Assembly: GCF_006345805.1 (NCBI RefSeq)
Contig: NC_043001.1
Span: 89,590,001-89,654,000, forward strand
DNA length: 64,000 nucleotides
Source of the DNA: Octopus sinensis
Taxonomy: Eukaryota
Reading direction: 5' to 3'
Both the position numbers and the translations under genes were made by a program. Of the stretch, positions 2,280-57,489 are shown in pieces (position 1 is the first letter of the stretch; each line of letters starts with the position of its first letter). The notes under the pieces were generated by a model. That model was given only the letters and a program-made list of their open reading frames with translations. It had not been told where the DNA came from and made no database searches.

Positions 2280-2500
2280 ATAGTCATACATGTAAAGAAA
2301 AAGGCAAACACATTACCTGAATGCACTGGTGTATCAAGATAAGATGTTGGTGGTGGTAGATGGAAATGAGAAAATCTTTATTTGGCTCATAAAAACACGA
2401 GCAGGCACATTAAACACACAATTGCTCCTGATTTAGAAACATAAAAATTGTCTACACTCTCCTAGTATATCTGGAACTTGAAAGAGTATGGAATGAGCAA
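2280..2500 (+). mobile_element. Degraded Penelope-like GIY-YIG endonuclease fragment
   Basis: Translates in pieces to ALVYQDK...KIFIW and LSTLS*YIWNLKE, matching STSLADFVW*LKE in the better-preserved copy at 24932-25620. Confidence 0.4.
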
Positions 2501-3707
2501 AACCAAAATAATTGATTAATAGCCTTTATATAGTCAACCTAAGAGTAATGCAAATGTATCAGAGGACAGACAGATGGACACACGCATGCATGCACACACA
2601 CAAATTGAAAGAGAATGAAAAGCCAGTAATCAATAGAACTTTTGATTGTTTTACCATATCATCCTAAACTGCTTTCACAATTAATATTTGTTGCTAGGAG
2701 TAGGGTGTGTGTGTGAATGTGCTCTGACCAATCCTAATTTGGTTCATATCAGTTAACTTAGTTTTATTTGTCCTTTTTTATTTTGTATGTGTAGTTATCT
2801 GAAAGTGGTACCCCCTTCCACACATCCCGTTCTTCTAACAACAACAAATAATAATTGTTTGTAACATAAGCACAATGCTATAAATTTGGTGAGAGTGGGG
2901 TTAGTTGATTAAAATGGTGTCAGTACTTGATTGATATTTTATTTTATTGACCCAATGAAAGGCAAGGATTTGAACTCAAAAACCAGACTAAATACTGCCA
3001 ATCTATTGCCCTTCGAACAACAAATAATCTTTATTGATATGATTTATTGAGACTTTTCTTTAGACTATATATTCATGATGTTTATTTCAAAATCATTGCT
3101 GCTGGCATGAAAACATACATAGTATATGCTGTAAAGTGGTTGGCATTAAGAAGAGCATCCAACCATAGCAACCATTTCAAATCATACTGGAATACAGTGC
3201 TGTTCTTGGGACCAATGGATCCTATCAAACCATCCAACCCATGCCAATATGGAACATGAACATTAAATGATGATGATATCTCTGATTTCTGTTGTCTTTT
3301 TCATGGATGTGTATATGTACATGATTCCAGACCAGATTCAAAGTAATGGTAGTAAGTCCTTAAACATACGTTTAGTGGATAAGGACATTATTGGCTGGAT
3401 ATGTACAAGCACATATCCAGAAATAAAAGAGCTAATGATATCCAGAAAATGAATAGAATGAGATGTGTTGTAGATATAAATATTGTAAATATACACATTA
3501 GACCTGAAGTTTATAGCCTGGGTAAATTATAATCATATTAACATCTCATCTAGTCCTTATCCACTAAATCCCTAGTACATACACATGTACAGGAACGAAA
3601 TTCCTGATGATGTTCAGAAGTTGCATGAAATGAAATGTGATGTTGTTATAAATATTGTAAATATGCACTTTAAAGCTGAAGTTTATAGACTGGATAAATT
3701 ATAATCA

Positions 3708-4062
3708 TCATCATCATCATCGTTTAACGTCCGTTCTCCATGCTAGCATGGGTTGGACGGTTCGACCGGGGATCTGGGAAGCCAGAAGGCTGCACCAGGC
3801 TCCAGTCTTATCTGGCAGTGTTTCTACAGCTGGATGCCCTTCCTAACGCCAACCACTCCGTGAGTGTAGTGGGTGCTTTTTACGTGCCACCTGCACAGGT
3901 GCCAGGCGAGGCTGGCAATGGCCACGGTCGGATTGGTGTATTTTATGTGCCACCGGCACGGAAGCCAGACGAGGCGGTGCTGGCATCGGCCACGAGTCGG
4001 ATGGTGCTTTTTACGTACCACCAGACCAGGGATCCTGGCTGGTTCAATTCGATTTCGATTTC
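3708..4062 (-). mobile_element. SINE family C (Meta-domain-like core, (GAT)n tail)
   Basis: Sense core GTTGGCGTTAGGAAGGGCATCCAGCTGTAGAAA and 3' end CCCATGCTAGCATGGAGAACGGACGTTAAACGATGATGATG. Related copies near 3110-3275, 8942-9135, 10830-11170, 13365-13510, 16920-17180, 35062-35245, 38095-38585, 38780-39058, 39414-39770 and 45450-45650. Confidence 0.8.
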
Positions 4063-4558
4063 GCTTGCCCCAACATGTCTTCGCAATAATCTTATTAAGA
4101 ATTCATCTAAGACATTTAGATATTTAGTAATAATTGATTTATCAAAATAATATAAGAATGGTTATTCTCCTTACATATTTAGGTGGGATGGTGATGGGAA
4201 ATATATGAAATTTGTACTCAAATCTTTCACAAATTAAACTGGAAATTTGAAATAATGATTTCTAAGATTGATATAAAACAGCACATTTTGAGGGAAAGGT
4301 TTGATTTGGTTGACTCCAGTATTTTACTGGTGTATATTTAATTGACTCTGGAGAGATGAAAGACAGTTTTACAGTGAAATTTGGACTTAAAAAAGGCGCT
4401 ATAATGCTGAAAGTAATTCATTCTGATACCTTTTACAATACTGGAGATTTTTAGATATTGTAAGGTAAACTTTCAAATGACTCAGATAATTTTTATAGAT
4501 ACTGTGAGATTATGCATGCACAGCTGTTGTTAATATTATTGTTCTTTTCCATTTCCAG

Positions 4559-4804
4559 CTGGAACCAGAAATAAAGGCAGTACGAAAGACACAAGAGAGT
4601 CTAATAGAGGACTTGACGCATATCCGTAGCAACAGTGATGTGCACAACAAGCAGTATTCAGAACTGCAGATGAATGTCAGACAAATTGCAGAAGATGCAA
4701 CAGAGGCCATTAGCAGCATGAAGACCTTGAAATCACAGACAGTAAATAATCTGCAGCTTATCAAGAATATTAAGCTGGAATTGAACAAACTAAAGGATCC
4801 AGAA
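4559..4804 (+). CDS. Unidentified coiled-coil protein, internal exon A (82 codons, phase 0-0); upstream exons not identified
   Basis: Acceptor cttttccatttccag|CTG and donor GAA|gtaagc. Open frame LEPEIKAVRKTQESLIEDLTHIRSN...LNKLKDPE with heptad-like pattern. Confidence 0.8.
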
Positions 4805-5379
4805 GTAAGCTAATCTACTTTTAGTTTGTAATGTTTGTCTGGTGTTAGCTAGATAGGTATGCAAATTTATCATTTCATCATTTGCCATCTAACTTACTTT
4901 TGACTGATTACTAAGTTAGCCTTTCTAATTTATTTAGATTGGTTATTGTCATCTTGTTACATATGCTTATACCAAAACCTATCTTTTGTCTGGCTACCAT
5001 CCCATGTTCATTCCATTCACTTTTAGCTGAAAGCCATTACAAAGATCCACTATACCTCATGTCACCTAATACATGGACCACTACAAAGGTTCACTATCTG
5101 TGCATCAATACAATAAAGTACAGATTGATCTGTACTTTATTACAGATGAACCACCATTTAATGCAACCAGTCAAAGTATATTGATTGGAGTATAATGAGA
5201 GAGACCTGGGCTTTCATTGTTAGCTTAATCAAACTGATTAAGTGTATTTATGCCTATATGTCTTCTGCAAGAATTTTTCTTTGTGACAAATTACAGTAAG
5301 TAGCCTTCTTACAGGTCCAAATATACTCAAGCATATTTGAACTGGTAACAAGTTTATATCAATACAATAATGAATGTAT

Positions 5380-5704
5380 CATACAGATAAGAAAGTAATA
5401 TTTTGAATGTAGTATAGTTGTGAAAACAGCAGAAAGGTTGGGTATTTTACATTTATATGACAGAAAAAGTTGTCAGCAGACAGCCGCAGGATTCAAACCC
5501 ACACCTCTTAGATACCAGCTGAGTGCTCTACCATTAAGCTAAACTGCCTGTTGACAACCTTTTTAGTCATATAAGAGTAAAATATCCAATCTTTCTGCTG
5601 TTTCCACAGCTATACTGTATTTGAAATATTACTTTCTTGTCTTACGATACACATTTGACGCTTCCAAAAACAAACAAAAAGATGTTTGTTTACATATGTT
5701 GTTG
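5380..5704. mobile_element. Foldback insertion with tRNA-like loop and 15-bp flanking direct repeats
   Basis: CAATAATGAATGTAT at 5365-5379 and 5705-5719. Inverted arms at ~5385-5483 and ~5544-5641. Confidence 0.7.
5478..5548 (-). pseudogene. tRNA-like sequence (anticodon GGT, Thr-like), probably a pseudogene
   Basis: GGCAGTTTAGCTTAATGGTAGAGCACTCAGCTGGTATCTAAGAGGTGTGGGTTTGAATCCTGCGGCTGTCT folds as a cloverleaf. A box TAGCTTAATGG, anticodon loop CTGGTAT, T loop TTTGAAT (decayed TTCGAAT), one anticodon-stem mismatch. Confidence 0.7.
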
Positions 5705-6457
5705 CAATAATGAATGTATTGGTTTTTAAAGCTGGTTGTTCAGGTTTCTAGATGCCTTGTTTAAGAGTACAACACAATAGCTCTAAAAGTGTTGTAATTT
5801 GTTTGAAGCATTGCAGTATGTATAAATAAGGTGTTTGAAAAAGAAAAAGACCTTTGATCTATGCAGGTGAGGAGTTAGGCAAAGTATATGTAAGGCTTTG
5901 TCAATCAATAACAACAAAGAAAATAGATATTATATTATTTTACATAGGTTATTTAATGATTGTATGATATTTCAGAAAAAAGTTCCCCACTTCAAATATA
6001 AGAAAATATAATTAAAGAGTATGGAGAAATGTATTGTTACCAAGTCATTCTTGTATGTTGTTGAATGGCTTACTAGAAAGAGCACATTTCTCCATTCTCT
6101 GATTATTTATTTTCTTCTGTGAAAAAGGGATGTTTTTTCTAAACTATTTCATAAGATCAGTAGACAACCTGTGTAAGGTAATATAAAATCTCTTCTCTTT
6201 GTTTTCATTTATTGACATGACCTTATATATTTTGTCTAACTCCTCACCTACATTGCTCAAAGGTTTTTTCCAACATTTATCTCATTTACAAAAGCTGGTG
6301 GTGGTAAAGTTTGAGCATGCAATCATATGGTCTGTAGTCCAGCACTTTTACCTTATAGCCATTCTCTGACAAAAGTTTACTTGGAATGCTTGTGATTTCC
6401 AATAAATTTCCACAACAAAGTTTTGATTTTATTTTAATTTCTAATTTTTTGAAATAG

Positions 6458-6700
6458 TCTCGAATAAACCTGAAGATTGAAGCTGAGCGAAAAGAAACCA
6501 GACAGGATATCGACATGTTGAAGACACAGTTGAAAGAAGAACATACTCGCTCCTTGAATACGGCCAATGAGATGGAGAAAATCATTAAATCTTTATCATC
6601 AGTCACCATGATGCAAAATGACATTAAAGCACAGTTAGAGGAGATGTCATTAAAAGTGAGCGATCTGCAGAATGACATCAGTACCTTGAAGATATCACAG
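6458..6700 (+). CDS. Unidentified coiled-coil protein, exon B (81 codons, phase 0-0)
   Basis: T-rich acceptor ...gaaatag|TCT and donor CAG|gtaaaa. SRINLKIEAERKETRQDIDMLKTQLKEE...LKISQ, in frame with ORF 6515..6709. Confidence 0.8.
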
Positions 6701-6932
6701 GTAAAATAATCATGGTAGTGTATCTGTGTGATGATAACAGGGTGGATATTAACCAAATAAGGACTGTATGTAGATGGTGACAGGATAGGTGCAGTGAGTA
6801 GTTGTTGGGTATATTTCCTATTTCTAGCAAATTGAGTAACCCTGTAGATGGGGTGGCTTTATATGTTCCCCTACAATGCAGTGTATTACCATTGAAACAT
6901 GAGATGTTTTCCTTTTTTCTTTCTCTCCCCAG

Positions 6933-14704: not shown

Positions 14705-15110
14705 AATAGGTGCAGACTTGGCTGTGTGGTAAGAAGTTTGCTTCCCAACCACATGGTTCTAGGTTCAATCCCACTGCATGGCATCTTGGATAAGTATCTT
14801 CTACAATAGCCTCAGGGCATTGAAAGCCTTGTGGGGATTTGGTAGAGAGAAAGAAGCCTGTTGTATATACGTATCTGTGTGTGTATTTGGTTCTTGACAT
14901 TTTGTGATAGTTGTAAATGAGTGTCACTGTTGTAGAAGGAGTGCCATTCATTTCTAAATCTGGAAAAACATATATGGCCTTAGGAAAATATTACCTTGCT
15001 TGGAAGGTGAGGGTTGATGATAGGAGAGGCATCCAGCTGAAGAAAATCTGCATCAATAAACTGTCAAACCCACACAAGTATAGCAAAGTGAATATTAAAA
15101 TGGTGATGGT
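14705..15110 (+). mobile_element. Degenerate SINE (family A head with family C-like tail)
   Basis: GGCTGTGTGGTAAGAAGTTTGC...GGTTCAATCCCACTG head and GGCATCCAGCTG core. Confidence 0.6.
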
Positions 15111-15248
15111 AATGAAGAACAAACTAACAAACCAAATTTTCAAGGTAATAAGCAAACCAAGTTTTGAAACATGATAAACAGAATTTTAAACGTGTGTTCA
15201 AACTAAATTGTAAAACATTAACGCAACAGATTTATATACATCACCAAC

Positions 15249-15725
15249 CTTATTCAAGGGATTCATCTCTTCAATAATCTGACAGATATTCCGAATTACA
15301 TCATCACGGGACACTCTAGCTGACATACGAGCCTTAAATGAAATGCCATATGTTGTTGTTGTTCCAAAAGGTGTGGAGAAATATGAATCCAGGAGATCCG
15401 TGGCCACCTTTGTGATCTCTGCCAAATCGATACGACAAATGGTACTCACTGGAAGGACACGAAGACTATAGCGTGTCTTTTGGACTTGACTTTGGTAAAT
15501 ATCACCGAGAATGTGATGAATTAATTCACATGGCTTCTCTAGGGTAGTCTTGATGAATAGACAGTTCTTTGTGCCACTGTCCACCTGCTGGAACCGCCGT
15601 TCAGCAGGTTTTTCCTCTTTCAAGGCTTTCACTTCTCGTTCAAGTTCATCTTCAATCTCACCAGCTGATTCTTCTGAATCTTCTTTGTCATCATTAGATT
15701 CCAAATTCTTTGATGTCACCTCTGT
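15249..15725 (-). CDS. THUMPD1: THUMP domain-containing protein 1, second coding exon (159 codons, phase 0-0)
   Basis: Acceptor tttag|ACA and donor AAG|gttggt. Contains ERRFQQVDSGTKNCLFIKT and KTRYSLRVLPVSTIC, THUMPD1 signature motifs. Confidence 0.95.
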
Positions 15726-15819
15726 CTAAATCAGATAAAATATCAGAAAAACAAAATAAAGTAATTTTAATTTCTTAAATATGGTGGGAAGGGGAGGAAT
15801 GTCAGTCAACTAAACAGAC

Positions 15820-15975
15820 CAGTAGTTTCCAACCTGGGGTCTGTGGACTCCTGGTGGTCCATGAACAAAATTCAAAATTTCATACACACACACACACACA
15901 CATATACATAAGGATAAGCATATTAAAAGGGGTCAGTGGGAAAACTCAATTAAATAAAAGGGTTGGAAACCACTG
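15820..15975. mobile_element. hAT (Charlie-like) MITE
   Basis: TIRs CAGTAGTTTCCAACC / GGTTGGAAACCACTG. 8-bp TSD AAACAGAC (15812-15819) / GAACAGAC (15976-15983). Confidence 0.8.
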
Positions 15976-17496
15976 GAACAGACCTGAGTACATAACTGGT
16001 GCCTTACTTAATCAACACCAGAGAGATGTTGAATTCAGTGGGATTTGAATTGAGAATGTAAAAAGCAGTCTGACAAATGATGTAATGATTCTGCCTTTTA
16101 AAAGATGTTTCTGATTTCGAGAGGTGGGGAAGGATAAGTTGATACCATCAACCTTAGTACATATTTATTTTAATGATCTCAGAAAGATGAAAAGCTAAGT
16201 TGATCTCAGCACAAGCAGACATGAGATCTTCATTCCACTCCATTCAGCAACAATCAGCTGGAATTACTTTAGCATTTAAACCGGCCATATCTGGTCAAAA
16301 TATTCTACCTGTTTTATGTTCAACCAGGTCAAATCTGGCCCCTCACATCTATCCTACAATGTCATTCTAAAAATAAACTACCATGTCATCAGAATCTAGA
16401 AGCTACAAGATAATTCATGATTAATTTGAAACAATGTGAATAAATAAATATTACATTTAGCAGAATAATCTCAACAGTGCCTTAAATGTTGAAAGCATTC
16501 AATGATATCCACAAAAAAGGTAAAAAAAAATCAAAATCAAAAAGAAAATGATTTCCACTTTAGTTTTACTGTGTAGCACCTTGGGTATGCATTCTGTTAT
16601 GGCCCCAGACCAACCAAAGCCTTATGAGTGAATCTGATAGACAAAAACTAAGCAGAAACCCTGTATGTGTGTGTTTACATTTGTGCTCTATGAAAGTCAC
16701 CAACTACAAGCAGAGTTCTTGGCGTTGCTTCATTTCTCCAACCAGCAAATAGTTTGCTCACTTTTGCAGGGGTATGAAATAAGGGATACTTGTGAAACAG
16801 GTAAGGGGTAGCATCAAGAAGAGTATCTAGCTGTAAAACAATGCTTCAGTAACATATTCATCTACCCCATGCTAATATGGATAAACAAAAGTCCAAACAT
16901 GGTCAAATACCCACTAACTGGCTCATGCTGGTGGCACATAAAAAGCACTATCTGAACATGATTGATGCCAGGCCTGCTTGACTGGTTCCTGTGCCAGTGG
17001 CATGTAAAAGCACCCACTACACTCTTGGAGTGGTTGGCATTAGGAAGGGCATCCAGCTGTAGAAACATTGCCAGATAAGATTGGAGGCTGGTGCAGCCGA
17101 TGGCTCTCCAGACCTCAGTCAAACTGTCCAACCCATGCCAGCATGGAAAATGAACGTTAAACGGTGATGATAATGATGACCAAAAGGACCTCAAAATAAT
17201 AGGAAGTGTTACTATGGACTATATTGAGTTCAGTATTTTACTAGTATTTATTTTATTGACCCTGAAAGGATGAAAGTCATCAAACCTTGCACAAGGATTG
17301 AAATATGAAGAGAGGGCTAGATATTACATCGATCCCAATGCTCAACTGGTACTTATTTTATTGATACCCAAAAAGATGAAAGGCAAAGTTGACCTTGGTG
17401 ACATTTGAATTCAGAATGCAAAGTATTTTCTCCAGCACAGTAATGATTCTACCAGTCTGTCGCCTTACAAAAGATACTATTAATAAACAAACTCAC

Positions 17497-17706
17497 ATGC
17501 TCAGGTCCATATAATATATCGGCGTATTCATTGAGAAGATTATACATTTCCTTAACAGCTTGACTTTCATTGCGATTACATGTCACCAGAAAACCTCGCA
17601 TCCCAACATCTATGGAGTTCCATTTCTTACGTTTCTTATACATACATTTCTTATAATAGGTACGTGATCTCTTGCAGCCACTCTTTGGTCCATCATTGCC
17701 TCCCAT
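17497..17706 (-). CDS. THUMPD1: THUMP domain-containing protein 1, first coding exon (70 codons)
   Basis: ATG at 17706, with an acceptor (ttacag|) opening the exon at 17723 and donor CAT|gtgagt. GMRGFLVTCNRNE...KEMYNLLNEYADILYGPE is the THUMPD1 N-terminal motif. Joined CDS is 352 aa. Confidence 0.95.
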
Positions 17707-18803
17707 TCTGATGTTTATGCAACCTGTAACATAATGTAACTGAACAATTAAAGTGTTTCACTCACATAACTGTTGATTAATACTTTTGGAGTAAAGGTAG
17801 GTCTTTGAATAGAGATAGATTATTGGAAAAATGTAAAGTAGGGGTTGGGTTCTTAGTAGAGGTAAGTTTTTGGTGTACAGGTAACAATAGGTATTTCAAG
17901 CAGATGTAGGCTTTGGATATAAATACATTCTTTGGGATGGTTAAGAAGTTTGTTTCTCAGCAACATGGTTTTGGGTTCAGTTTTGGATAAGTGTCTTCTA
18001 CTATAGTCCCAGGCCGACTAAAGCTTTGTGAGTGCATTTGGTAGACGGAAACTTATAGAAGTTTGTCGTATGTATGTGTGAGTGTGTATATTTGTGTCTC
18101 TTTGTCTTGTCATAACATGATATCTATACATGAGTGGCATTGTCATACAGTTATTCGTTCCTATTCATATTTTAACTGAATGCCCGAGTAACGAATAACA
18201 TCATCAAATGCTGACTGATAGCGACAGTAACGTTACAACGAAACTCTATATTAAATGCAATAACCAAAATAACTGTGGACCTAAGACATAAAACTTGGCA
18301 ACTTGAGAATGAAACTGAGTGGTGGAAGCATTACAATCAAAAGGCTTCCTTCAGTAACTTACCCAGGATGCAACTGGAACCATGAACTAAGTCAGTAGAA
18401 GAGGGGCTAGTATCGCACATATAACATTTTGCAGGACCTACCCCTCCCAAAAGGCAGTTTAAACGATTTAATATGCTTAACATGAAGGCCTAAAGAGAAA
18501 GTATATTTAAAATCGTCATTTTCAAAAGACATTTACTACCCAACCAAACTTTCAGTGTAGTTTTTTTGTTGAGACCCATATCACCTTAGATCGAGCAAAC
18601 CTACGATCAAATGAGTTCCAGTTGTGACCATTTCGTCTTTCCGCATTTCAGAGATTAGATTGTCTAATATATCCTTCATTTATGACGGTAGGGTGTGATG
18701 AGAAGGAGATATGTCTATCATTTTTAACAGGCTGAGCGACTGCGTAGACATTCCTTTGTTATTTTGCCGCCTTTATAATAGAGAGCAGGGTTTATATATA
18801 TAT

Positions 18804-18839
<36 letters not shown>

Positions 18840-19235
18840 GTGTTGTATTGATGTAGCGAATATATATTCTCGTTTATTAAAATTACGGGACACTTTTGTA
18901 TTTGTGGGTGGAGGACTGTAAGTTAGGGAGTTGGAATACTATGGCATTAGCAACCTAACTGAAAGCACAATTGAGGAACCAAAACCAGCACATGTAGGAA
19001 GTACTGAATACCTTGTAAACTGGCTAGAGCATAGTATATTACTGAGACACACATTAACAATCCACAATTGAGGGATGGAACCAAAGGATAAAGACTAGCG
19101 AAATTTCAAAAGCTCAATAATAATAGAATAAGCTAGTTACATAGTTACCGGTTAATATTTATACATGTGTCAGCTATTAGTTAATAGATCAGTTAACAAA
19201 CTTGTGCCGGTTGTTATAAATATAGTTATACATAC

Positions 19236-19330
19236 CTTCCGATTTATATATGTATATATTCGAAACAACAGAAATTCAACGATATGCAGAAATAAACAAG
19301 AACGACACGAAAGAACACGTGGTGCGTTTG
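19236..19330 (-). other. Candidate non-coding first exon / promoter region of THUMPD1
   Basis: The ATG exon starts with a splice acceptor, so an upstream exon is implied. Donor-like AAG|gtatgt at 19236/19235 in a locally CpG-retaining stretch. 5' boundary is a guess. Confidence 0.4.
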
Positions 19331-19428
19331 TTTGTAATTTGTCAGTAATCTCCCTTGATATTTTAATTATCTCCCTTGTCAACTTACTGCTTCAAGGCTA
19401 AAACGACTTCCTAAACGTCAAATCTGTA

Positions 19429-19816
19429 TACTCTTTACTCTTTTCAGTCATTTGACTGCGGCCATGCTGAAGCACCGCCTTTAGTCAAGCAAATCGACCC
19501 CAGGTCTTATTCTTTGTAAGCCTAGTACTTATTCTATCGGTTTCTTTTGCCTAACCGCTATGTTACGGGGACGTAAACACACCAGCATCGGTTGTCAAGC
19601 GATGTTGGGAGGACAAACACAGACACACAAACAGATACACACGTATACATATATACGACGGGCTTCTTTCAGTTTCCCTCTACCAAATTCACTCACAAGG
19701 CTTTTGTTGGCCCTAGGCTATAGTAGAAGACACTTGTCCAAAGTATCACACTGTGGGAATGAACCCGGAACCATGTGGTTGGTAAGCAAGCTACTTACTA
19801 CACAGCCATTCCTGCA
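19429..19816 (-). mobile_element. SINE family A, full length
   Basis: tRNA-derived head, internal microsatellite linker, tail ...GCTCCAGCATGGCCGCAGTCAAATGACTGAAA with GAGTA(A)n repeats. Homologous copies at 30667-31081, 54103-54330 and 57522-58104. Confidence 0.85.
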
Positions 19817-21691
19817 CCTATGTTTGAATTATTTTACTTATTGAGTCAGGGTGGTGGTTCCTATGCCTTCAACTTCTCCTAAATCAGTGAAACTGATGTT
19901 TTTGAAAGTCAACATTTGTTGGAAAGATGTGAAGTAACAGAGGTCCAACATTCTTCAGAGAAAGGACGGGATGAAGTCATTAGAGCAGGAGCTAAGGGAG
20001 GTGGCAGTGGTGCAGGACATTGCAGAGTAATGGGAAGAGAGATGAGTTGGAATACCAGCCTGGAGGTAGCATGATTTTAACTAGCTCTAAGGAGCAAAGG
20101 CCATTATAGTAGAAGTATTGATAGAAAAAGCAGAAGGGGGAGACTGCACACTTGTGGACTAGAAGTAGGAGTTCGTTTATGTATGCATGCATATATGTGT
20201 ATCAGTGCACATATGTATGCTGCTACTGCTCCTGCTACTAATGATGATGATGATCACCTCCACCACCCACACACATATTATTCTTTAGCCCTTAATCTTT
20301 GGTTTTGATGCAATAGAAAATGTATACCCCTACTTGGATGATATCTGGATTTTATTACAGATACATTGTTGAATAGTTTTATCATGACCACCTTAGCCTC
20401 ATAGTAGAAATAGGCATTATGAAGTTTCTTTTTATATAAAAGTGCCCCAATCTTATGGATCAGATTGTTTCCTTTTTCTCTTACTGGGTCCTTAAATTCT
20501 TTTTTAAATTTTAATATTTTAATAGATAAATTTTGCTAAGTTAAGATGCCCCCCACCCATATTCCTAATTCCCACACTTAGATCTCAATGTGATCTCCTT
20601 TGTTCTCCATTTTAAGCCCCTTTTAGTTGATAATCATAATATGTTAAGCCACCCCACCCGTCCTCTTTCTAGTTATTACCCCGCCTTTATATCATTATCT
20701 TACTAGCATCTTCTGACTGATTTTATGGTCATAGTGAAATAGGGGTAGCGAAGAGTATCTAACATTAATTAATTTATCACCAACAAGAACTTAACTGTTA
20801 ATTCCCAATGGTTTTGATTCTAAGGGGATATAGTCTACTTGCTGCATTGGGTCTGTTGAATGTGATAAGGATAAAAATGAATGTGTCTATATCACCATTT
20901 CTCTTTACTGACCCCCATTATTTCCTTCTGCCACTCTAAATTATAGTAGACTTTAGGTATTTTTTCCCTATATTCATTCTGATACAATAACAGAAAAAAG
21001 AAACAATATATTGTAGTCCTTAGTATTGATGAAAAACTTGCGAAAAAATTATGATGGAGTATCTGTATGTTGGAAATCTATATGGTCATATCCATCTGAG
21101 TAGAGTGGTTTATTTCAAATTGATGTAATATTTGCATTGATCGATGAAATGGAGCCACTTGAAACAGCTGTAATGCATCGATTACCTGGACATCCTTGTT
21201 ACTTATTTGCTTTATATATATATATATATATAATCATCACCAAGACATACAAGAAAACTCACACCTCTATGTACAATGACATAAATGCAGAAGTGAAGGA
21301 GCTATCCATGTGATACAGATATATATATAAAAAAAAACATAAATTCAAAATGACAAAGAACATTTCAAATAACCACTCCTAAAACACCCTCTTTCCAAAA
21401 CCCAAGGAAACAAATTCAACTCCAGATTTTTTTTTCGGCTAGCTCATATAAAAAAAGGTATGAGTTTTATATATGAAATTATTCTTGATGAATCCCTGAA
21501 AGAGATGAAAGCACTAAATAAATACTTTTTATTCAAATCCTAACTACCTTCTTTTTCTTAATATGTATAATCTGTACACCACTTTAAACAATGTACACAC
21601 ACACATGGCACACGTGTACACTAACCTGTACATGAATGCTAACATACACACATATTCACACACACAGACGCACACATATATATGCATATAT

Positions 21692-24600
21692 GTTAGTTAG
21701 TTAGTTAATTTGGCTCAAAAGCAAATAGCAAGGCCATGTAGGGGGACATGGAGTTAAGTACAGGGTGGTGTTCATGTAAAGAGTTTAGGCCACTTGAGGT
21801 CAAGGGAGGCTTTGAACAAAGCGGTTGTCGGCATCTTCACCATCTCGTCTGGCAGCTTGTTCCACGGATCCGCAACCCGGACGGAGAAAGCTCCTCTCCT
21901 TCGATTGAGATGAAATCGTCGCAGGTAGAGCTTTTCGGAATGACCCCGCAGCCGACGCTCTGGAGCAGGAGTGAAGAACAGCTCTTTCGAGAGGTTACAC
22001 TTTCCGCTTATGATGTTGTGGGCGAGAATGAGATCACCACGGCGGCGGCATTTTTCAAGAGAATAAAGGTCGAGCGTTCTCAGCCTTTCTTTGTAGGACA
22101 AATTTTTGAGACCATGAACCATGCGGGTAGCCAGCTTCTGGACTCTTTCGAGATGCTGTATGTCTTTGAAGAGATAAGGAGAAGAGGCTTGAATCCCATA
22201 CTCCAATATGGGTCTCACCAGCATGACATAGAGTGGTAGGAATATGGCTGCTGCGAGCATTCCAAATGACCGTCGAATCAAGAACAGAATTCCGCGTGCT
22301 TTGTTGGCAGCATGGATGCACTGGGCCGAAGGCGAAAAGGAGGAATCCACCAAGATACCTAGGTCCTTTACCTGATCGGTCCTCTCCAGCAGCAGACGAC
22401 CCGGCTCGAAATCAAGTTGAGTTGCAGGAGTAGAGCCGACAGGCAGATGACAGCACTTTGACACGTTCAGACACAGGTCCCAATTGTTAGACCACTTCCA
22501 AATTTGGTGGAGGCATCGACGAAGATCCTCTATATTACCGCGAGGAGCGACCAGTTTGATATCGTCGGCAAATAGAAGGGTGTGTTGCGTGAGATCGTCG
22601 GGCAAGTCATTTATGAAGACTAAGAACAACAAGGGCCCAAGCACTGAACCTTGAGGCACGCCACTGCTCGCACTGGAGACGTCGGACCGCGAACTATTAA
22701 CTTGGACTTGGAAGAAGCGATCTGAGAGGAAGGCACCAACCCATCGTACAATATCCGGATGGAAACTATATGCTTGAAGCTTGACAAGCAATAGGCGGTG
22801 GTTTACCGAGTCAAAAGCTTTGGCAAAGTCCAGTAAAACGATGTCAACAGCATCACTATCATCGAGGATGCGCGTCACCAATTCTTCCATTACTAGTAGG
22901 TTGGTCAAGCATGATCTCTTCGGCACGAAGCCGTGTTGGGAATCAGAGATAGAGGCTGTGTTTAGGAGGTGGAGCATCATACTTTTCTTAAGGATGGTTT
23001 CGAACATCTTGCTGATAATTGATGTAAGGGAAACCGGTCGGTAGTTAAGCGGGTCTTCGCGGCTCTCTTTCTTGAAAATTGGGCAGATTATCGCTGTTCT
23101 CCAGTCTGCAGGTATAACACCCGTCGCCAATGACATATTGAATAGTCGTGTTAAGGGCTCGCAGATGACCGGAGCCAACGCTTTGATAACCCGTGGGTGT
23201 ATGCCGTCAGGGCCGTGACCTTTGTTGACATCGAGGCCTTGAATAACACGTTTGACTTCGTCCCGCGTGATGACCAATCGAAGCATTGGAGGTACCGATC
23301 TATCAAATGGAGGGGGTTCACGACCATCATCTTGTTTGAAAATAGTTGGAAAAGCCTCGGCAAATAATTGACTCTGTTGATAAGGGTCCTCAATCGATAC
23401 GCCTGTTGAGTCTACCAACGTTGCAATCTGGTTGTTCAAGCGGGAATTCCGCTGGACATGGGCAAAGAAGGTTTTTGGATTGCTACTGGCATTTGCCACG
23501 ATTTTGTATTCGTAACTGAAGCGTTCTTTCTTTTCAATTTTCACGGCTCGGTCTCGTTGAGTTTTGTACACCTCAAAAGCTGCAGTCGAATCTAGATTTT
23601 TGAATTCAGCCCAAGCAATATCTCTGAGTCGACGTTCTCGTTTAACCTTCTTCGTCACCCAGGGCTTGTGTTTCTTCCTCTTGGGAAGCCCAACGGGAAC
23701 TGCCTGGTCAGTCAAACAGATTACATATGCTTTGAGGGATGACCATAGTTCGTCAACTGAGGACAACGTCATCAGGGATGGCCAGTCCAGAAGCGCGGAA
23801 GCCTCGGTTAGAATTTCAAGATTAATTGCAGAGAAGACTCTACGTGGCAGCAAAGTAGTCGTGGGCGTAGAAAAAGTTGTGTGCATGACGAACTTCAGGA
23901 CCGCATGATCACTCTTGGCAAGAGGGGCGCACACAGATACGTCTGACACTGATCTTGGATAGCGGGAGAATACCAGATCTAGCATAGATGGCTGCTGCCC
24001 AGACCGATGCCTTGTCGGATATTCAACATGTTGCGATAGAAAACAATCTTCAGCCACGTCAAGAAGGGCCTGGCCGAACCGGGAAGATGTTGTACAAATT
24101 GATGCGGGCCAATCGATCGTGGGAGCGTTGAAGTCTCCTAGTACCAAACAGTCATGCGAAGCTGAAACGAATCTTATCGCTTCGAGTAGATGAGCATCGT
24201 CCTGGGGGTCGGCAAGAGGCGGCCTGTAGACAGCCAACACGGGCAGGCAAAACTCAGATAGGCTCAGCTTGCAATAGACGGCATCGAATTTTGTTGTAGG
24301 CTGAGCATTAGTGGGTAGAATACCGCTGGACGGTTTGTGCTCAGACTTAACATACACAGCAACACCTCCACCTCGCCTTTTTCCTGTCACATCTGAAAAG
24401 GACGTAGCCCTGCAGGTGGATTTCTGAGTCCTTTACTGCTGGAGTCAGCCAAGTCTCGGTGATAGCTATCACATCAGGGGAGTCACGTATGGCCAGTGTA
24501 AATAGTTTACTGAACTTTAGGAATAAGGAGCACGAGTTGGTGTAGACGATGCTGAGCTCTGAAGTCTGAGGGGCGGGAGTTGGGGAGCAAGCAGAATAAG

Positions 24601-24692
24601 GGGTATCAGTGATAGCATCATTGACGGGGGTATCAACTTCACTTCGATTTGCCCTCACATCACTTTCCCTGTCAGCACTACAGCATGGGACC
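21692..24692 (-). mobile_element. 5'-truncated CR1-group LINE (APE endonuclease + RT) with (TAAC)n tail
   Basis: ORF2 motifs, short 3'UTR with stem-loop CCATGT-N6-ACATGG (21734-21751), and a (TAAC)4 tail at 21692-21707. Much richer in GC and CpG than the flanks. Confidence 0.95.
21772..24560 (-). pseudogene. LINE ORF2 (endonuclease-reverse transcriptase) with one frameshift at ~24380
   Basis: APE motifs IVYTN, DVIAITETWL, RRGGGVAVYV, LGDFN and SDH. RT motifs NYRPVSLTS, QHGF, LDFAKAFDSV, GVPQGSVLGP and LFADD. ORFs 24347..24694 and 21772..24390 join across an A5 run. Confidence 0.92.
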
Positions 24693-24931
24693 ATGACAGG
24701 CTTCTTTCAGTTTCTGTGTGCCAAATCCACTTGCATGGCTTTGGTCAACCTGGACCTATCATAGGTACCATATAGTGAGACTGAACCTAAGAACATATGG
24801 TGAGGAAGCAAGCTTCTCAACCATGCTTGCACCTATAAAATAATTTATATTTATACAGCATTTATATTTATTCATATTATCATTTATGTTTATATTTCGT
24901 AATTACACTATATATTTTAAATCGACAAACC

Positions 24932-25620
24932 ATGAAGGTATCCTATGCCAACTCTGCTAATTTAGAGCAGCTTATGCACTGCATAAACAATAGCAAAATG
25001 CGGCAAAGGTTCAATAACTCACCTACTGGATCTAGCGAACATTTGCATCTAAACACCAACCAAGGAGATGTAAACTGCATTGATAAACACCAACTACGAC
25101 CAATTTGTAATAGTAGAAATACTTATGATACAGCTAGCACGGTAACAACACCGGTAAATGGAGTTGGGACTGCCTTATATACAAATAAATACAATAAATG
25201 CTCATGCAGAGAAAAATCAAAATGTCCTTTGATGAATCTTTGTATGAGTACAAATCTTGTATATAAATGTACCATGCACACAAGAGGAGGGCCCTATGTT
25301 TACATTGGGCAGACGGCTGATTCATTTAAGAATTGCTATTGTAACAATGTTGCCAGCTTTAAGACAATCAATAAGAGATATTCAACATCTTTGGCAGATT
25401 TTGTATGGTGACTGAAGGAAGTTAAAACGAAGTACAACATTAAGGTATGCAAAACTATACAATATAATTTCCAGGAGATGCCGCCTTCTGCTCCGAGGAA
25501 TCCCTGTCTATTCTGTGGACCAACGAGAAGATAATTAATAAAATTTCTGAATAACTCGACATGTCTACATGCATATAAATGTACTTTCGCACAATGCATT
25601 GAGAATGAATTTTGAGTAAC
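24932..25620 (+). mobile_element. Penelope-like element, GIY-YIG endonuclease region (degraded)
   Basis: MKVSY...CSCREKSKCPLMNLC..NLVYKC...YVYIGQTADSFK...STSLADFVW*LKE, followed by frameshifted CxLC-like and CxH motifs. Confidence 0.85.
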
Positions 25621-26429
25621 TGTTAACTTAATTTACATTAAAGTATGGATGACTTAAGTTTACTTTCAACCCCTCCATTTTTATAAACACCAAGTAGATA
25701 ACTAACTCACTTTGTGATTGTGAGAGCATCAAACCTCATGTGTGCATATGCTCAAATATTTGCTGATGTATGAGCGAGTGGTATTTGAGCCATGAAGTTT
25801 ATACATCTATATACATCCATATCTGTTAAGGGTTATTTTTAATACTTTTCTCTCCAGCTTGCTTGTTCGTTTCTCTTTTTGCCATCTGTGATTTTATTTT
25901 TGATCTTCTATGTAAATGAAGATATTTCCTCCATCGGGCTGTGCTTCTCTCTACAAAATGGAAAGTTACATTGTGGAACAGTCATTTTAACAAGTTGTAT
26001 TTATTTATCATCCGACAAGATACATCTGCACCACCAGATGCTCTTGAACAAAAGATGCAGCCTAGTTCAGGAATCAAACTCACTACCTAAAGATTGTGAG
26101 CCTGATGCTCTAACCACTAAGCCATGTGCTTTCACACACACATGCTCACGGGTACACACGCACACAAACACACACACACACACACAACACACACACACAC
26201 ACACCACACACACACACTTTAATGTAGAGCAATGTAGATATAATAAGGAAGGAAACAAATCAGAGTGTATAGCTGCAGAGTGAAGGTTGATAATATACTG
26301 GAGAGATATTAATTTTGCTAATTGACAAAATGTGAATGTGTGTGTGTGTTAATGTGAAGTTTCAAGTAGAAATTGGTTGCTGTAGTGGAATTAAGGTATC
26401 AGTAGTTCTGATAGCAGTTTGTTGATCTG

Positions 26430-26945
26430 ATGTTGTTGTTGTTGTTGTTGTTATTGTTATGTTGCTATGGGTGAGAGGTGTGTTGTAGTTATATGTTGTA
26501 TTGATAATGCTGTTGTCATGGTGGTGGTGGTGATGGTGGTGGTGATGGTGGTGGGGATGGTGGTGGGGATGGGGGGTGATGGTGGAGGTGGTGGTGTGGT
26601 GGTGGTGATGATGGTGATGGTGCTGTCATAGAGGTGTTAGTGGTGTCAGTGGTGATGGTGATGGTGGTGGTGTTGGTGTTAGTGTTAATAGTAGGAGTGG
26701 TGTCATTGGCGATGCTGTTGTCATGGTGGTGTTGCAGTTGGTGTTGACAATGGTGTTGTCATGGTGGTGGTGATTTCGCTGTTGTGCTGCTGGTGGTGCT
26801 ACTAATATTTGTTTTTATGATGATAGTGTTGGAGATACTATTGTCATTGTGGTGGTGGTGGTGACAGTGCTGTTTATGCTGTTGTCATGGTGGTGTGTGT
26901 CGTATTTGTGTTGTTGTTGTTGTTGGTGGTGGTGGTAGTGATGTG
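26430..26945. repeat. (GTT)n/(GGT)n low-complexity tract
   Basis: Degenerate GGT/GAT/GTT triplet repeats. Confidence 0.85.
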
Positions 26946-27102
26946 GGTAGTTTTGATTTGTTGCAGCAGAGATGAGTCCAACATCCACTACCACCATTGT
27001 CATCCTCATCATCATTGTTGTCATCGTTGTCATCATCACCATGATGTTAGTCACACATGTGACTAACATGGTGGCGGTAATGGGGGATGAAAAAAAAAAA
27101 TA

Positions 27103-27520
27103 AGGCGGCGAGCTGGCAGAATTGTTAGCACGCTGGGCGAATTGCTTAGCGATATTTCGTCTGCTGTTATGTTCTGAGTTCAAATTCCGACGAGGTTGAC
27201 TTTGCCTTTCATCCTTTCGGGGTCGATAAATTGAGTACCAGTCGCGTACTGGGGTCAATCTAATCGACTTAATCCGTTTGTCTGTTCTTGTTTGTCCTCT
27301 CTGTGTTTAGCCCCTTGTGGGTAGTAAAGAAATAGGTATTTTGTCTGTCGCTACGTTCTGAGTTCAAATTCCACCGAGGCCGACTTTGCCCTTCATCCTT
27401 CTGGGGTCGATTAAATAAGTACCAGTTACACACTGGGGTCCATACAATCGACTTAATCTGTTTGTCTGTCCTTGTTTGTCCTCTCTGTGTTTAGCCCCTT
27501 GTGGGTAGTAAAGAAATAGG
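27103..27520 (+). mobile_element. SINE family B (tRNA-derived, Nin-domain-like core) with tandemly duplicated 3' part
   Basis: Head GGCGGCGAGCTGGCAGAATTGTTAGCACG and core GCCTTTCATCCTTTCGGGGTCGATAAATTGAGTACC. The ~190-bp body is present twice. Other copies near 17270-17450, 27890-28240, 49745-49920 and 63235-63451. Confidence 0.8.
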
Positions 27521-29189
27521 TAATGGGGGATGATGCAGAGTTGTGTGAAGCTGCAGTTGAAACCCTTTTGTTATCATCTTTCTCTTGAAATGCAATGCCT
27601 TTGTTTCAAATAACATTGAAAATAATGAAGGATCTAGTAAAATAACTGTCAATAGGGAGCTGGTGTAAGGCAGTGAATAGGCAGAATCCCTAGAGCACTG
27701 GATAAAATGGTTTACAGCAGAGGTTCCCAATTGCTGAGGCATGGACCAGTTCTGGGCCACAAAACATTTGGTACCAGACAACATAGAAAGAATGAATTTC
27801 AAAATTTTTATTTCAGGTTTGGTGATGCAAACAGGAAAAATAGACTTCAAAACATGAGCATTAATATATATCTTTTTTTAAAATTTATATTTAGCAGAAG
27901 CGTCTGTATTTATGCTTTGAGCTTAAATTTTGCCGAGGTCGACATTGCTTTCCATTCCTTCAGGCTTGATAAAATAATTACCGGTCAAGCAGTGGGGTCG
28001 ATGTTGTTGATTTACCCCAACCCCAACGAAAATTACTGGTCTTGTGCCAAAATATGAAACCAATATTTAGCAGAAGTGTCAGTCATTACATTCTGATTTC
28101 AAATTCCACTGAGGCTGACTTTGCCTTTCATCCTTTCAGAATCGATAAAATAAATACCTATGGAACATAGGTTGATTTAATTGACTAAGTCCCAACTTGG
28201 AACTTGCTGGCCTTGTGCCAAAATTTGAAATCAATATTTATCAGAAGCAACAGAGTGACTCAAGGGCCAAAAGTTTCCTGCATTAGCACTTATCAAATTC
28301 TTTTTGTTTTTACTTTATTAAATATTTCAGTCTGCTGAGTGTTTTTGCATCAGAAGCTCAGAAACATGGTGAGTGACCAAGACTAACATCCACAAGTTCC
28401 AGACATTTGGAATGGATCTTGCATACATAAAGCGGATTCGATCCACCATAGCCAAATTTAAATTAACACTGCAGCAGAACTTTTCCCACGGCGGAACAAT
28501 GGTTTTTCTCTGACAGCAGTTTTACATTTTCCAGATGCCTTTTGCTAGGCCGAAATAATGTCTTCACCACTTGATCCTTTCTAACCTCTTCTACTTCACC
28601 AAAAGCTAGAATAGAGATAACAAGACCACCAACTAAATCTATTGTTCACAATATTTCTATCCTTCTGGTTAATTATAAAAGCAAGAACACCTCAAGACAA
28701 AATTCAGTTGGTGATAATTCAACAAGTCCAGTCACATGGTGACGAATCAATGAGAACGAAGTCTGGCTGACCAGCTAGAACCTTGGTCAGAGGGAGAATG
28801 AAGTTTATTGTCAGCAACTGTGAGACAACACCCTACAACTCTCTCTAGCTCTAATTCTGTTCTCTTATGGCATCATTCTGTCACTATCTGTTGATTACTA
28901 CTCATTATTTGTACATGCCATACTATGCAAAGAAAGATTCTACTGCATCTAACTTTCTTTCGCATGCTTTTGGATTTATCATAACCTGCCTGTCAAGGCA
29001 AGGTATTGTAATGTATTGGTATGCTGCTATAATAACAAATTTTTATCGTTACAACTGCTGACTCCAACATTTCATAATATTGTTTACCAATGAATTTCTC
29101 CCTCTACAATTGGTGACCCTCGGCTTCAACTAAAAACTTTATCATTACAATTGGTGACCCTTGACTTCAACTAAAAGCTTTATCATTAC

Positions 29190-29566
29190 ACATTCACTAA
29201 CAGTTGTCTCAGAAACATCCTTAGCATCAGGTGGCCAGAGGGCATCTCAAATGAACAACTGTGGGGCAGGACAGGACAAGCCCCAATTGAGATATATATC
29301 AAGCAATGAAAATGGGGATAGATAGGCCACATGCTATGAAAGCCTGCACCAAATGTCACCAAGCAGGCCCTTGACTGGAACCCATAGGGGAAGCGAAAAG
29401 TGAGCCAACTAAAACAGTCTTGGTGCAGGAATGTTAACCCAGAGGTGAGGGCAGCCGGAATGACGTGGGCCGAGCTGAAGAGGATCCTATGTTCCCTGAG
29501 GAATCAAGCTGAAGAGGATCCTATGTTCCCTGAGGAATCAAGAGGCCTAAGAAGAAGAAGAAGAAG
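29190..29566 (+). mobile_element. RTE-clade LINE 3' fragment with (GAA)n tail
   Basis: FTNSCLRNILSIRWPEGISNEQLWGRTGQ...KWG*IGHML*K...KQALDWNP*GKRK...GMTWAELKR. A 34-bp tandem duplication at 29473-29541, then a GAA tail. Confidence 0.85.
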
Positions 29567-30630
29567 GTATTTCATATGTAATAGATATGTATTATATATG
29601 TAATAATTAAATTATATACCATGAATTTTATTGTGTTTTGTTATGTGCATGCCCTCCCAGTTGATGGTAAAGTTGTCTTGCTTGAAACTGGTTGGTGATG
29701 CAAATAAAGGTTGGGTATTGCAGCTTTATATATTTATTCTGGCTGTAATATGTTCTAAGTTTAAATCCTGCTGAGGTTGACTTTGCCATTTTTGCCCCCT
29801 AAGTTGTTAAAATAAAGTACCAGCCTAGTACTGAGGTTGATGGTAGTGACACATGCACATACCTAAAAATGACTGGCCTTTAGAAACAACTATTAAGCTA
29901 GTTTTTGAGACAAAGCATGGAATTTCGGTGAAAGATTTTAATTTAGATCATTTTAAAACAACAGTTTGTACCATAGAACCTGTCTCAAGTTGGGTTGGTT
30001 TCAAAAGAGTTTAAGAGCTACATCCCTCAGTTCAATCCCAATCCAACAGATCTATGATCAAAGAAAGACATTTTGTTTTCTATAATCATTATTATACATA
30101 ATGTGTCTAGATGTGGGATTACATAATCTGATGTATTGTACAGACTATGGAATGTGGTCCAACCCCTAGCTTTGCTGGCTCCTGTCAGGCAATCCAACCC
30201 ATGCCAGCATAATGGAAAACAGACATTAAAAGATAATGATGATACATACATACATATCTACATACATACATATATGTCTATTGGTGTGTGACCTGTTAGT
30301 TAGGCTGTTGCACTCATGATCACTATATTGGGGGTTCGATTCCTGATTGGGCAGTGCATTGTGTTCTTGAGCAAAACACTTTATTTCACATTGTTCCAAC
30401 CCCCCATTTTGATCAGAGGAAGAATATTGGCCTGCTCAACTAGCCAGTGGGGTGGTATCATTTGAAGTATAATGCAATGCAAAAGCACATTGTGATCAGT
30501 GATGTGTAACAACATCTGATAGCTTGGTCAGTCATGTGATCACATAATATACCTATATATACATACATATACATACATATGTACATACACATATACATAT
30601 GTACATACAAATACACACACATACACATAT

Positions 30631-53374: not shown

Positions 53375-53870
53375 TAAGGATTAAGGTTGTTGAAAAGCCA
53401 GGCAACCCTATCAAATCTATAATTGGTAGAACCTATCCTTTTAGTAGAACCCCCTGTACGGATAAGTACTGTACTGTATGTAGATTTAGCCCACAAACAA
53501 ATTGTAAAGCCAGAAATGTAGTCTATAGTATTGTAAAGCCAGAAATGTAGTCTATAGTATAAGATGTATAGAGGGACGATGCAGTACCAAGACAACGACA
53601 TACGTAGGGGAAACGACAAGAAGCATAGGAGAGCGGGTGAATGAACATTGGAGACAACTCAAGGAAGGTAAAAGCTCATCGATTCTGTATCAACACGCCG
53701 AACAGGAACACGGGGGATCAATCAACAACATAGAAATTAAAATATTGTCCATACATAGAACAGATGCAACAATCAGACAAATTACAGAAGCTACACACAT
53801 AATAGAAAATAAACCTAGCCTGAATAGAAAACTAGAATGGAACACTAACACACACCACAACATATAACGG
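53375..53870 (+). mobile_element. Penelope-like GIY-YIG endonuclease fragment
   Basis: CTDKYCTVC...NCKARNVVYSI..CIEGRC...TYVGETTRSIGERVNEH...SILYQH...RQITEA..I...KPSLNRKLEW. Frame broken by a 29-bp tandem duplication at 53501-53558. Confidence 0.85.
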
Positions 53871-56254: not shown

Positions 56255-56385
56255 TAACGATTGAATAATTAAATTTAGAAAAATTAAAAGAAAAGTTTTT
56301 TTAAAGGAATATTTGTATAGTGTTCAAATATAAGTGGCATTCTGCCTTTCTCTGTCTCCCTTGTTTGCACTTGTGTATATATATA

Positions 56386-57489
56386 CATATCACCCTCCTC
56401 ACTGGCACCCATCATCGACCCTATCGCATCATCAACTCCTTCACCTGCACCTCCAGCAATATTATCTATTGCGTCTCTTGCTCTCTCTGCCATTCCCTGT
56501 ACATCGGACAAACGGGACGCCGCTTGGCTGACCGGTTCGCGGAACACCTTCGTGACATCCGCCTTGCGAACGACACACCTGTCTCACGCCATTTCCGCTC
56601 CACCGGTCACTCCTTGCAACACCTGTCTGTGTTCGGTTTGTCCTTACACAGAGGCCATCAGGATTCCCGTTTGCGCCGTGAACAGGAATTAATGTTCTCT
56701 CTTCGCTCTTATACGCCATTCGGTCTCAACTCTCCCCCCCCTCCTCATCTAACCACCTCTCCCCCTCCTCATCTAACCTCCCCCGACCCATACTTCTCTT
56801 CAGTCCTTCGTCCTTTCACCCCTACTCCCCTTCCCTTCTTCCCTCTTTCTCCCTCCCTCCTTCCCTCTTCCCTCTTTCTCTCTGCTCCCTCACTCCCCTT
56901 CTCTCTCTCTCCCCCTCTCCCTCTATCCTCCCTCCTCCTCTCCCCTCCTCTCCCCTCCTCTTCTCCTCTCCTTCCTTCTCCCCTCCCCCCTCCTCTTCTC
57001 CCCTTTCCTTCTCCCCTCTTCTCCCCTTTCTTTCTCCCCCTCCCCCTCTTCTCCTCTCTCTACACTACACCATACGACTTTACACATCACATCATATATA
57101 CATACACACGTCCAGACCTCTCATACGCACAAATACTCTCTCATACACACACACTCTTATGTTGGAGCGAGGTCATTTAACCCTATTATCTCCCCTAATT
57201 TCGCTCTTGCGTCTCACGTTTGATCTTTGACTTCTGGCCGAAATCAGATCGCCATGTTGATTCGCTAGCCTCTGCACGCATATTTTTTTCTCTCCTTCTT
57301 TCTGTGTTTTTTCTCTGTGTATCTTTCTGTTGAAGAGCGTAGGCTCGAAACGTTAAAGACTTGTTTTATTTATATTTCCTGAGCGCCGTACTAATACAAT
57401 TGTTTGTTTGTATTCCACCTGCCTTCGTCTTTTGTTTATTTCCGTAAACCTGCCTTCGTCTTTTGTTTATTTTCATAAAGCTTCCCGTT
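56386..57489 (+). mobile_element. Penelope-like (Neptune-type) element 3' end: GIY-YIG domain, polypyrimidine tract and pLTR
   Basis: FTCTSSNIIYCVSCSLCHSLYIGQTGRRLADRFAEH...PVSRHF...H...RLRREQELMFSL...PFGLN, uninterrupted and CpG-rich. Confidence 0.9.
57322..57359 (+). ncRNA. Minimal type I hammerhead-like motif (A6U variant core)
   Basis: TCTTT CTGTTGA A GAGC gtag GCTC GAAA CGT T AAAGA, located in the PLE terminal repeat. Confidence 0.55.

Follow-up and report, generated by a model that had tools for sequence, protein, structure and literature searches.

A dispersed, non-coding octopus repeat family with a tRNA-like head, probably copied in trans by a Penelope-like enzyme, and the likely origin of a long intronic hairpin at insertion

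We found that a long intronic hairpin tipped with a tRNA-like cloverleaf, located in a 64,000-nt stretch of Octopus sinensis DNA (hereafter the window), is one of roughly 200-800 old dispersed copies of a repeat family. The family is non-coding and headed by a tRNA-like sequence. Probably it was copied in trans by the enzyme of a Penelope-like element (PLE), and the hairpin was likely made at insertion.

The hairpin was noticed in an initial annotation made from the letters of the window. Measurement of its inverted arms (5385-5483 and 5544-5642) confirmed the mismatch count made there by eye: each arm is 99 nt long, the two are 84% complementary across a 60-nt spacer, and 14 of the 16 mismatches are transitions. 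Likewise, the minus-strand cloverleaf proposed for the hairpin tip was called by ARAGORN as tRNA-Thr(ggt) at 5476-5549 and scored 48.6 bits against Rfam RF00005 at 5478-5548. Folding, suggested as a check, supported the structure: the minus strand reached -138.7 kcal/mol over 5365-5719 (z = -13.9, from 100 shuffles); the plus (host) strand of the hairpin region gave -138 kcal/mol, and 11 of the 14 transitions form G-U pairs there (p = 0.057). The 15-bp flanking direct repeat is also in place, at 5365-5379 and 5705-5719, with two matches in the window where 0.08 are expected. That this 15-mer lies outside the element was borne out among 428 fetched loci, where it occurs only four times, always as the window's own site. 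Some of its outermost letters, ~4 nt on one side and 2 nt on the opposite side, also match the element's own termini, and given this match the true target duplication may be 9-15 bp.

The annotation had further taken the sequence for a retrotransposed non-coding element fitting neither SINEs nor MITEs. Our data agree: the element is likely retrotransposed, belongs with neither the classic SINEs nor the MITEs, and exists in many dispersed copies. The family-1 unit is 285 nt long and comprises four modules, T-A-B-C:

Unit 1-74: module T, the tRNA-like head.
Unit 75-168: module A, the trailer.
Unit 169-232: module B, the tail.
Unit 233-285: module C, the leader.

Direct copies follow a 5'-truncated (A-B-C)-T-A order; thus, the unit is circularly permuted and its template was longer than one unit. 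Searches of the octopus's own genome (2.7 Gb) returned 871, 545 and 478 first-look candidates, with 40 scored in each. An exact 20-mer of module A matched the genome 45 times and its reversed control 0 times. Recapture gave about 200 loci as a lower bound, and divergence gave 370-1160 A modules, corresponding to as many as about 800 insertions; identity of the copies to the family yardstick is about 85%. A search with the tRNA family uncovered a sister, family 2 (L276), with a 291-nt unit of the same design that is identical to family 1 at 195 of 285 positions (68%). Loci L276 and L281-L360 belong to family 2, whose best copy reaches 56 bits with the Rfam tRNA model and is called tRNA-Ser(gga); copies of this kind can therefore enter tRNA gene lists. 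At one further locus (L206; G000:C22 near 22.673 Mb) matches to the head and module A recur at 174-nt spacing, apparently through local amplification.

The window copy reads, in the tRNA sense, inverted B, inverted A, T, A, and its features are as follows:

4805..6457, plus strand: host intron around the element, GT..AG, with exons ending at 4804 and starting at 6458.
5365..5379, no strand: left target-site duplication, 15 bp, whose inner 4 nt match the element end (direct-repeat and uniqueness counts).
5380..5475, minus strand: direct arm, formed by module A (trailer, unit 75-168) and terminating at fixed 3' site 1.
5464-5468, minus strand: T5 run, 8 nt after the cloverleaf.
5476..5549, minus strand: module T, the tRNA-like head, degenerate and bearing A and B boxes; it is no tRNA-Thr gene (ARAGORN, Rfam, column counts).
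5541..5569, no strand: head-to-head junction inside the natural 25-nt inverted repeat of leader/acceptor versus acceptor/trailer.
5544..5642, plus strand: inverted arm, a second copy of module A (unit about 67-168).
5642..5704, plus strand: module B, a tail of ~62 nt bounded by 3' sites 1 and 2.
About 5668-5691, plus strand: small stem-loop in module B.
5705..5719, no strand: right target-site duplication.

The intronic position was verified by a contig that joins 4804 to 6458 between GT..AG ends, from a run guessed to be RNA and at a depth of 2. The cloverleaf is antisense to this host transcript, so the suggestion that it serves as an RNase P/Z substrate within that transcript would not hold at this locus. 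A role for the hairpin as an ADAR editing substrate in the host intron is plausible, judging from its predicted fold. In a related organism, a contig has the right portion of the element at the corresponding position (5610-6716), with a flank ~4% diverged; the insertion therefore predates the split from that organism. No empty site was found among the contigs examined, and the window copy is old and probably inert. Immediately left of the duplication, a fragment of a different high-copy repeat, palindromic at its core, occupies 5326-5366 (summed depth 2800-4900; single-copy sequence has 15-35), and the same intron holds a second, older inverted repeat (5845-5889 and 6225-6269, spanning about 430 nt). 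Elsewhere in the window, the minus strand carries exons of a THUMP-domain gene (15198-15725 and 17449-17757, with a Pfam hit in the first piece only) and an 886-aa open LINE reading frame with endonuclease and reverse transcriptase domains (21772-24432), which we take to be CR1-like.

The head retains A and B boxes in the column counts of 37 copies, and its anticodon loop is decayed. Position 33 is C in 21 copies and T in 14, and position 34 is G in 25 and A in 9, a pattern that fits CpG decay. The significance once given to the GGT anticodon is therefore lost, and the canonical-looking U33 of the window is likely an accident. Compared with authentic tRNAs, the head is identical at no more than 55 of 74 positions (a small gene sample, 46 scored of a larger candidate pool); the sampled tRNA-Thr genes have AGT, TGT and CGT anticodons and reach at most 53 of 74. 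A functional tRNA-Thr gene was rejected on the frequency of C33 and this poor match to the tRNA-Thr genes of the host. Between the two families, sequence differences in the anticodon, T and acceptor stems leave the pairing intact, except for one G-G, and in both families pairing of leader with trailer extends the acceptor stem by 17-18 bp. This comparison of two sequences, which is not a covariation test, suggests that the fold of the head mattered to the master copies.

We next consider how the units were inserted. The survey comprised 175 distinct insertions from loci L001-L130, L206-L225 (without L209) and L281-L360, leaving out groups that touch a locus edge and segments under 35 nt. Head-to-head arrangements account for 80 of the 175, a single orientation for 93 and a tail-to-tail arrangement for 1. 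In family 1 (n = 121) there were 55 head-to-head, 1 tail-to-tail and 64 single-orientation insertions and 1 alternating array; in family 2 (n = 54) 25 were head-to-head and none tail-to-tail. Because the first query was itself an inverted copy, we recounted orientation on insertions found by a short motif only, and 21 of 40 and 16 of 35 were head-to-head, in two sets that may share a few members. Two ordinary SINEs in the same fetched loci, taken as a control, were head-to-head in 4 of 236 cases.

Copies terminate on the 3' side at either of two fixed sites, which lie about 60 nt from each other at unit positions of about 160-180 and 220-240. Erosion affects an end in 23 of the 80 head-to-head pairs; among the 57 clean pairs, 52 combine the two sites, one per end, where chance predicts 28. 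A tail of about 55-62 nt lies between the two 3' termini and appears at one end only. A microsatellite adjoins 89 of 215 3' ends, compared with 481 of 4663 control windows. Flanking duplications of 8-15 nt that are exact and not microsatellite sequence occur at 19 of the 175 insertions, against 5.8 for shuffled flank pairs, and 16 of the 19 are head-to-head; a few of these duplications are AT-rich and weak, and the remaining 156 insertions have no clean target duplication. Read-through in the order A-B-C-T-A, a partial tandem resembling a pseudo-LTR (pLTR), occurs in 19 of 121 family-1 and 9 of 54 family-2 insertions. A leader of at least 30 nt is kept by 46 of 61 head-bearing insertions in family 1 and 23 of 26 in family 2, and module C is present in 40 of 59 tRNA-bearing family-1 arms. 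The commonest position for the 5' end of an arm is unit 61-80 (51 of 189 and 14 of 81), which fits stalling of the reverse transcriptase at the stem or an end made by RNase Z, at a boundary blurred by the natural repeat.

These features bear on two familiar routes. A tRNA SINE depending on a LINE, with 5' inversions made by twin priming, would account for a tRNA-derived head with A and B boxes, for variable duplications of 8-15 bp and for 5' truncation, in a genome where SINEs and LINEs abound. Twin priming inverts the 5' part of one RNA without duplicating its 3' end. In the octopus insertions, however, both arms carry module A and end at the two fixed sites, leaders and A-B-C-T-A read-through are frequent in family 1, and ordinary SINEs are seldom head-to-head. 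Furthermore, one CR1 and one other LINE reference gave no match within 80 nt of the 175 insertions. We consider this route very unlikely. The second route, in which a captured tRNA sits between the long terminal inverted repeats of a MITE or foldback DNA transposon, agrees with the many copies that have inverted arms, some with flanking duplications. Yet the arms are unequal, with the tail at one end only, their interiors are variably truncated, more than half of the insertions have a single orientation, and the duplications vary between 8 and 15 nt with no fixed length, which makes this origin extremely improbable.

The signature is that of PLEs. Parts of PMC8557442 describe PLE copies as partial tandems next to which lies a 5'-truncated copy in inverted orientation; one end bears a tail of 30-40 bp, and insertion is biased towards microsatellites. 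Passages of PMC3846280 report a target duplication of 8-10 bp, head-to-head arrangement and mobilisation in trans, including that of unrelated sequence, and in the portion of PMC11167929 that concerns the tail, it is the stretch between two internal start sites of reverse transcription. PLEs are abundant in the Octopus sinensis genome, and five families (F1-F5) were compared with the units. Within 3-kb loci, in which long arms are undercounted, head-to-head copies made up 7 of 25 loci for F1, 2 of 25 for F2, 3 of 30 for F4 and 3 of 30 for F5. The spacing of the two ends, judged by eye, is about 57 nt in F1, 33 nt in F4 and 38 nt in F5. F4 encodes reverse transcriptase and GIY-YIG domains, and one of its loci (L394) holds an inverted plus a partial-tandem copy. 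In the same locus the F4 coding region is split into two overlapping open frames (1105-2415 and 2355-4706), at the same place in three copies, which may reflect a programmed frameshift or an intron. The window itself contains PLE endonuclease fragments of three abundant families (24839-25411, without a Pfam hit, 53529-53867 and 56305-56730), and F1-type PLE ends are nested in a family-1 tail module at L016:1675-2094 and L014:1269-1321. One flank (L287) resembles, by eye, the end of the Octopus Naiad consensus in part of the PMC8557442 supplement.

Mixed insertions connect the units with PLEs physically. Three of the 175 insertions are fused at the 5' junction to coding sequence of the F4 lineage. 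In L397, two internal pieces of F4 reverse transcriptase (138 and 62 nt) run together into a family-2 arm and the F4 3' end is absent, a chimera that is hard to explain except by template switching. L361 consists of a family-1 inverted arm and an A-B-C-T arm lying 2 nt from a 5'-truncated F5 copy, with family-1 site 1 and the F5 tail as outer ends. In L363 a family-2 tail arm stands head-to-head with a 5'-truncated F4 copy 26 nt away. About 0.1-0.2 such PLE-fused neighbours are expected by chance, a rough figure assuming 15,000-30,000 PLE copies; in L361 and L363 the PLE could have inserted later, into an existing copy. The neighbour scan used another F4 subfamily than the one seen in L357/L397, so this insertion lies outside it and rests on separate comparisons. 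Two family-2 copies near F4 but unfused (L381, L384) were not counted, and L349, where a TA run separates the copy from an F2 end at a distance of 21 nt, was ambiguous and was left out.

A partner end was sought as well. The 3' end of the unit had no profile or BLAST match in F1-F3 (75 loci), none in F4 (30 loci) apart from neighbouring copies, and none in F5 (30 loci). Family 1 weakly resembles the F1 end in register, a score equalled in 21-29 of 2000 shuffles, with 648 of 2000 for family 2, and a likeness of family 2 to the F2 end scored about 1% in shuffles and did not repeat in family 1; both were dropped because each was seen in one family only. The tail of the units is longer than the 30-40 bp in print and longer than the F4 and F5 tails. 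Its length fits F1 and the chimeras point to F4 and F5, which counts against a simple partner story.

PLE machinery might instead have picked up read-through RNA from an ordinary tRNA gene array or cluster, making the unit a passenger rather than a selected parasite. The layout of head, trailer and T5 run is that of a tRNA gene, and unrelated sequence can be moved in trans by PLEs according to parts of PMC3846280. Against this, the head is only distantly similar to the authentic tRNAs sampled, and two families that are 68% identical keep both ends, and their stems through compensatory changes. Moreover, no long head-to-tail array was seen among the 175 insertions, the longest arms being 466 and 506 nt. 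We regard such a passenger origin as very improbable.

Together these data favor copying of the units in trans by a PLE enzyme. RNA longer than one unit would be bound by the PLE reverse transcriptase/GIY-YIG endonuclease, both strands of an AT-rich target would be nicked 8-15 nt apart, and one cDNA would be primed at each of the two internal sites. Both cDNAs would then run towards the 5' end, often stopping at the foot of the tRNA stem, and would be joined head-to-head. At the window locus they were likely joined via the 25-nt leader/trailer repeat, yielding a cloverleaf at the tip of a 99-bp stem. Arms of the same insertion are slightly more alike than arms of different insertions (0.820 vs 0.795, n = 35; 0.856 vs 0.843, n = 17), a difference that leaves snap-back copying and two primings unseparated.

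The reverse complement of acceptor plus trailer matches leader plus acceptor over about 25 nt, and since the window junction falls inside this match, the inverted A arm abuts the head and the stem is lengthened to 99 bp. An inverted arm placed against the acceptor stem was seen in only 3 of 59 tRNA-bearing family-1 arms; thus, of what the initial annotation had asked of other copies, their multiplicity stands and the hairpin as a fixed feature does not. Most likely, the long hairpin was made at insertion, when two cDNAs were joined through the natural repeat; a later deletion between the leader and trailer repeats would give the same 99-bp structure. Editing of the template by ADAR before insertion was also considered and is not supported, because an opposite excess of A>G and T>C in the two arms was expected and both arms show the same rates (A>G 0.055, T>C 0.036-0.041).

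What the head does is the least certain step. A T5 run lies about 8 nt behind it in both families. A scan for the hammerhead core, which a minimal variant could escape, was negative on either strand of either doubled unit, and the same kind of scan found the core in the F1 end; no Rfam ribozyme reached the gathering score in the window. The pseudo-LTR of F4 (3' ends of L364-L393) has, by eye, a hammerhead-like layout with a variant core. The reading we rank first, with an even chance of being correct, is a putative internal Pol III promoter on a tandem master copy. Two observations count against a simple promoter model: the T5 run would be expected to stop Pol III, and a 506-nt family-2 arm (L290) starts about 50 nt upstream of the first of its two heads. 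Possible, and rather doubtful, is a putative RNase P/Z cutting signal that takes the place of the PLE hammerhead, and it is unlikely that the head is a passenger.

The full-text literature searched contains no tRNA-headed non-autonomous PLE, and in Repbase or Dfam the families may figure with an automatic label. Three motifs from the unit, each 15 nt long, are absent from the part of the PMC8557442 supplement that was compared. Repeats derived from tRNAs are described as LINE-dependent in parts of PMC5786205, and the non-autonomous PLE parasites that we found in print are retrozymes and truncated PLE derivatives. A bolder reading, less likely than not, is that the two families represent a new class of parasite, SINE-like in form, that uses Penelope enzymes and carries, in place of the hammerhead, a tRNA mimic locked in a 25-bp stem. 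Unit-length or circular RNA, which a retrozyme obtains by self-cleavage, would then be produced by Pol III or RNase P/Z of the host, and the chimeras would show that PLE arms are primed separately, possibly from different RNAs. If so, a tRNA-headed PLE parasite would join the tRNA-derived repeats with the PLE parasites. The 285-nt unit offers a minimal substrate for asking how PLEs build tandem and inverted insertions, and the rule of one start site per end together with the mixed insertions makes direct predictions for the in vitro system presented in PMC11167929. The family also explains spurious tRNA-Thr(GGT) calls and is a source of long intronic double-stranded RNA. The octopus is known for heavy RNA editing.

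The octopus units share with tRNA SINEs a tRNA head with Pol III boxes, retroposition and target-site duplications. This holds for the octopus OK, OR1 and OR2 SINEs, reportedly described by Ohshima and Okada in 1994, and for the Ceph-SINEs, all of which are set apart from the units here by description rather than by sequence. Unlike tRNA SINEs, the octopus units are permuted, with the head lying inside them and a T5 run directly following it; they end at two fixed 3' sites, lack a simple-repeat or poly(A) tail of their own, and form head-to-head pairs.

Among PLE-related elements, the non-autonomous Chlamys elements (MRC1) in parts of PMC8557442 are likewise non-coding PLE derivatives with pLTRs and head-to-tail copies. 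They generally have a 3' end like that of their autonomous partner, and those parts mention no tRNA head, whereas no partner end was found for the octopus unit. Animal non-LTR retrozymes, as portrayed in sections of PMC7761336 and bioRxiv 10.64898/2026.07.22.740005, also have non-coding units of 150-300 nt and copies of more than unit length, and both sources propose their mobilisation by PLEs. In these sections retrozymes are defined by a type I hammerhead and are said to lack promoters, whereas the octopus unit has A and B boxes and no hammerhead core and forms mostly sub-dimer inverted pairs in place of long arrays. Compared with endonuclease-bearing (EN+) PLEs (Penelope/Poseidon, Neptune, Naiad), the octopus units have no open reading frame, a length of 285-291 nt, a tRNA-like head, no hammerhead core, a tail of about 55-62 nt and no sequence identity with the five PLE families tested. 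Nevertheless, the two share partial tandems, an inverted 5'-truncated copy, a tail at one end, two 3' termini, a microsatellite bias and short, variable target-site duplications, as these are set out in parts of PMC8557442, PMC3846280 and PMC11167929.
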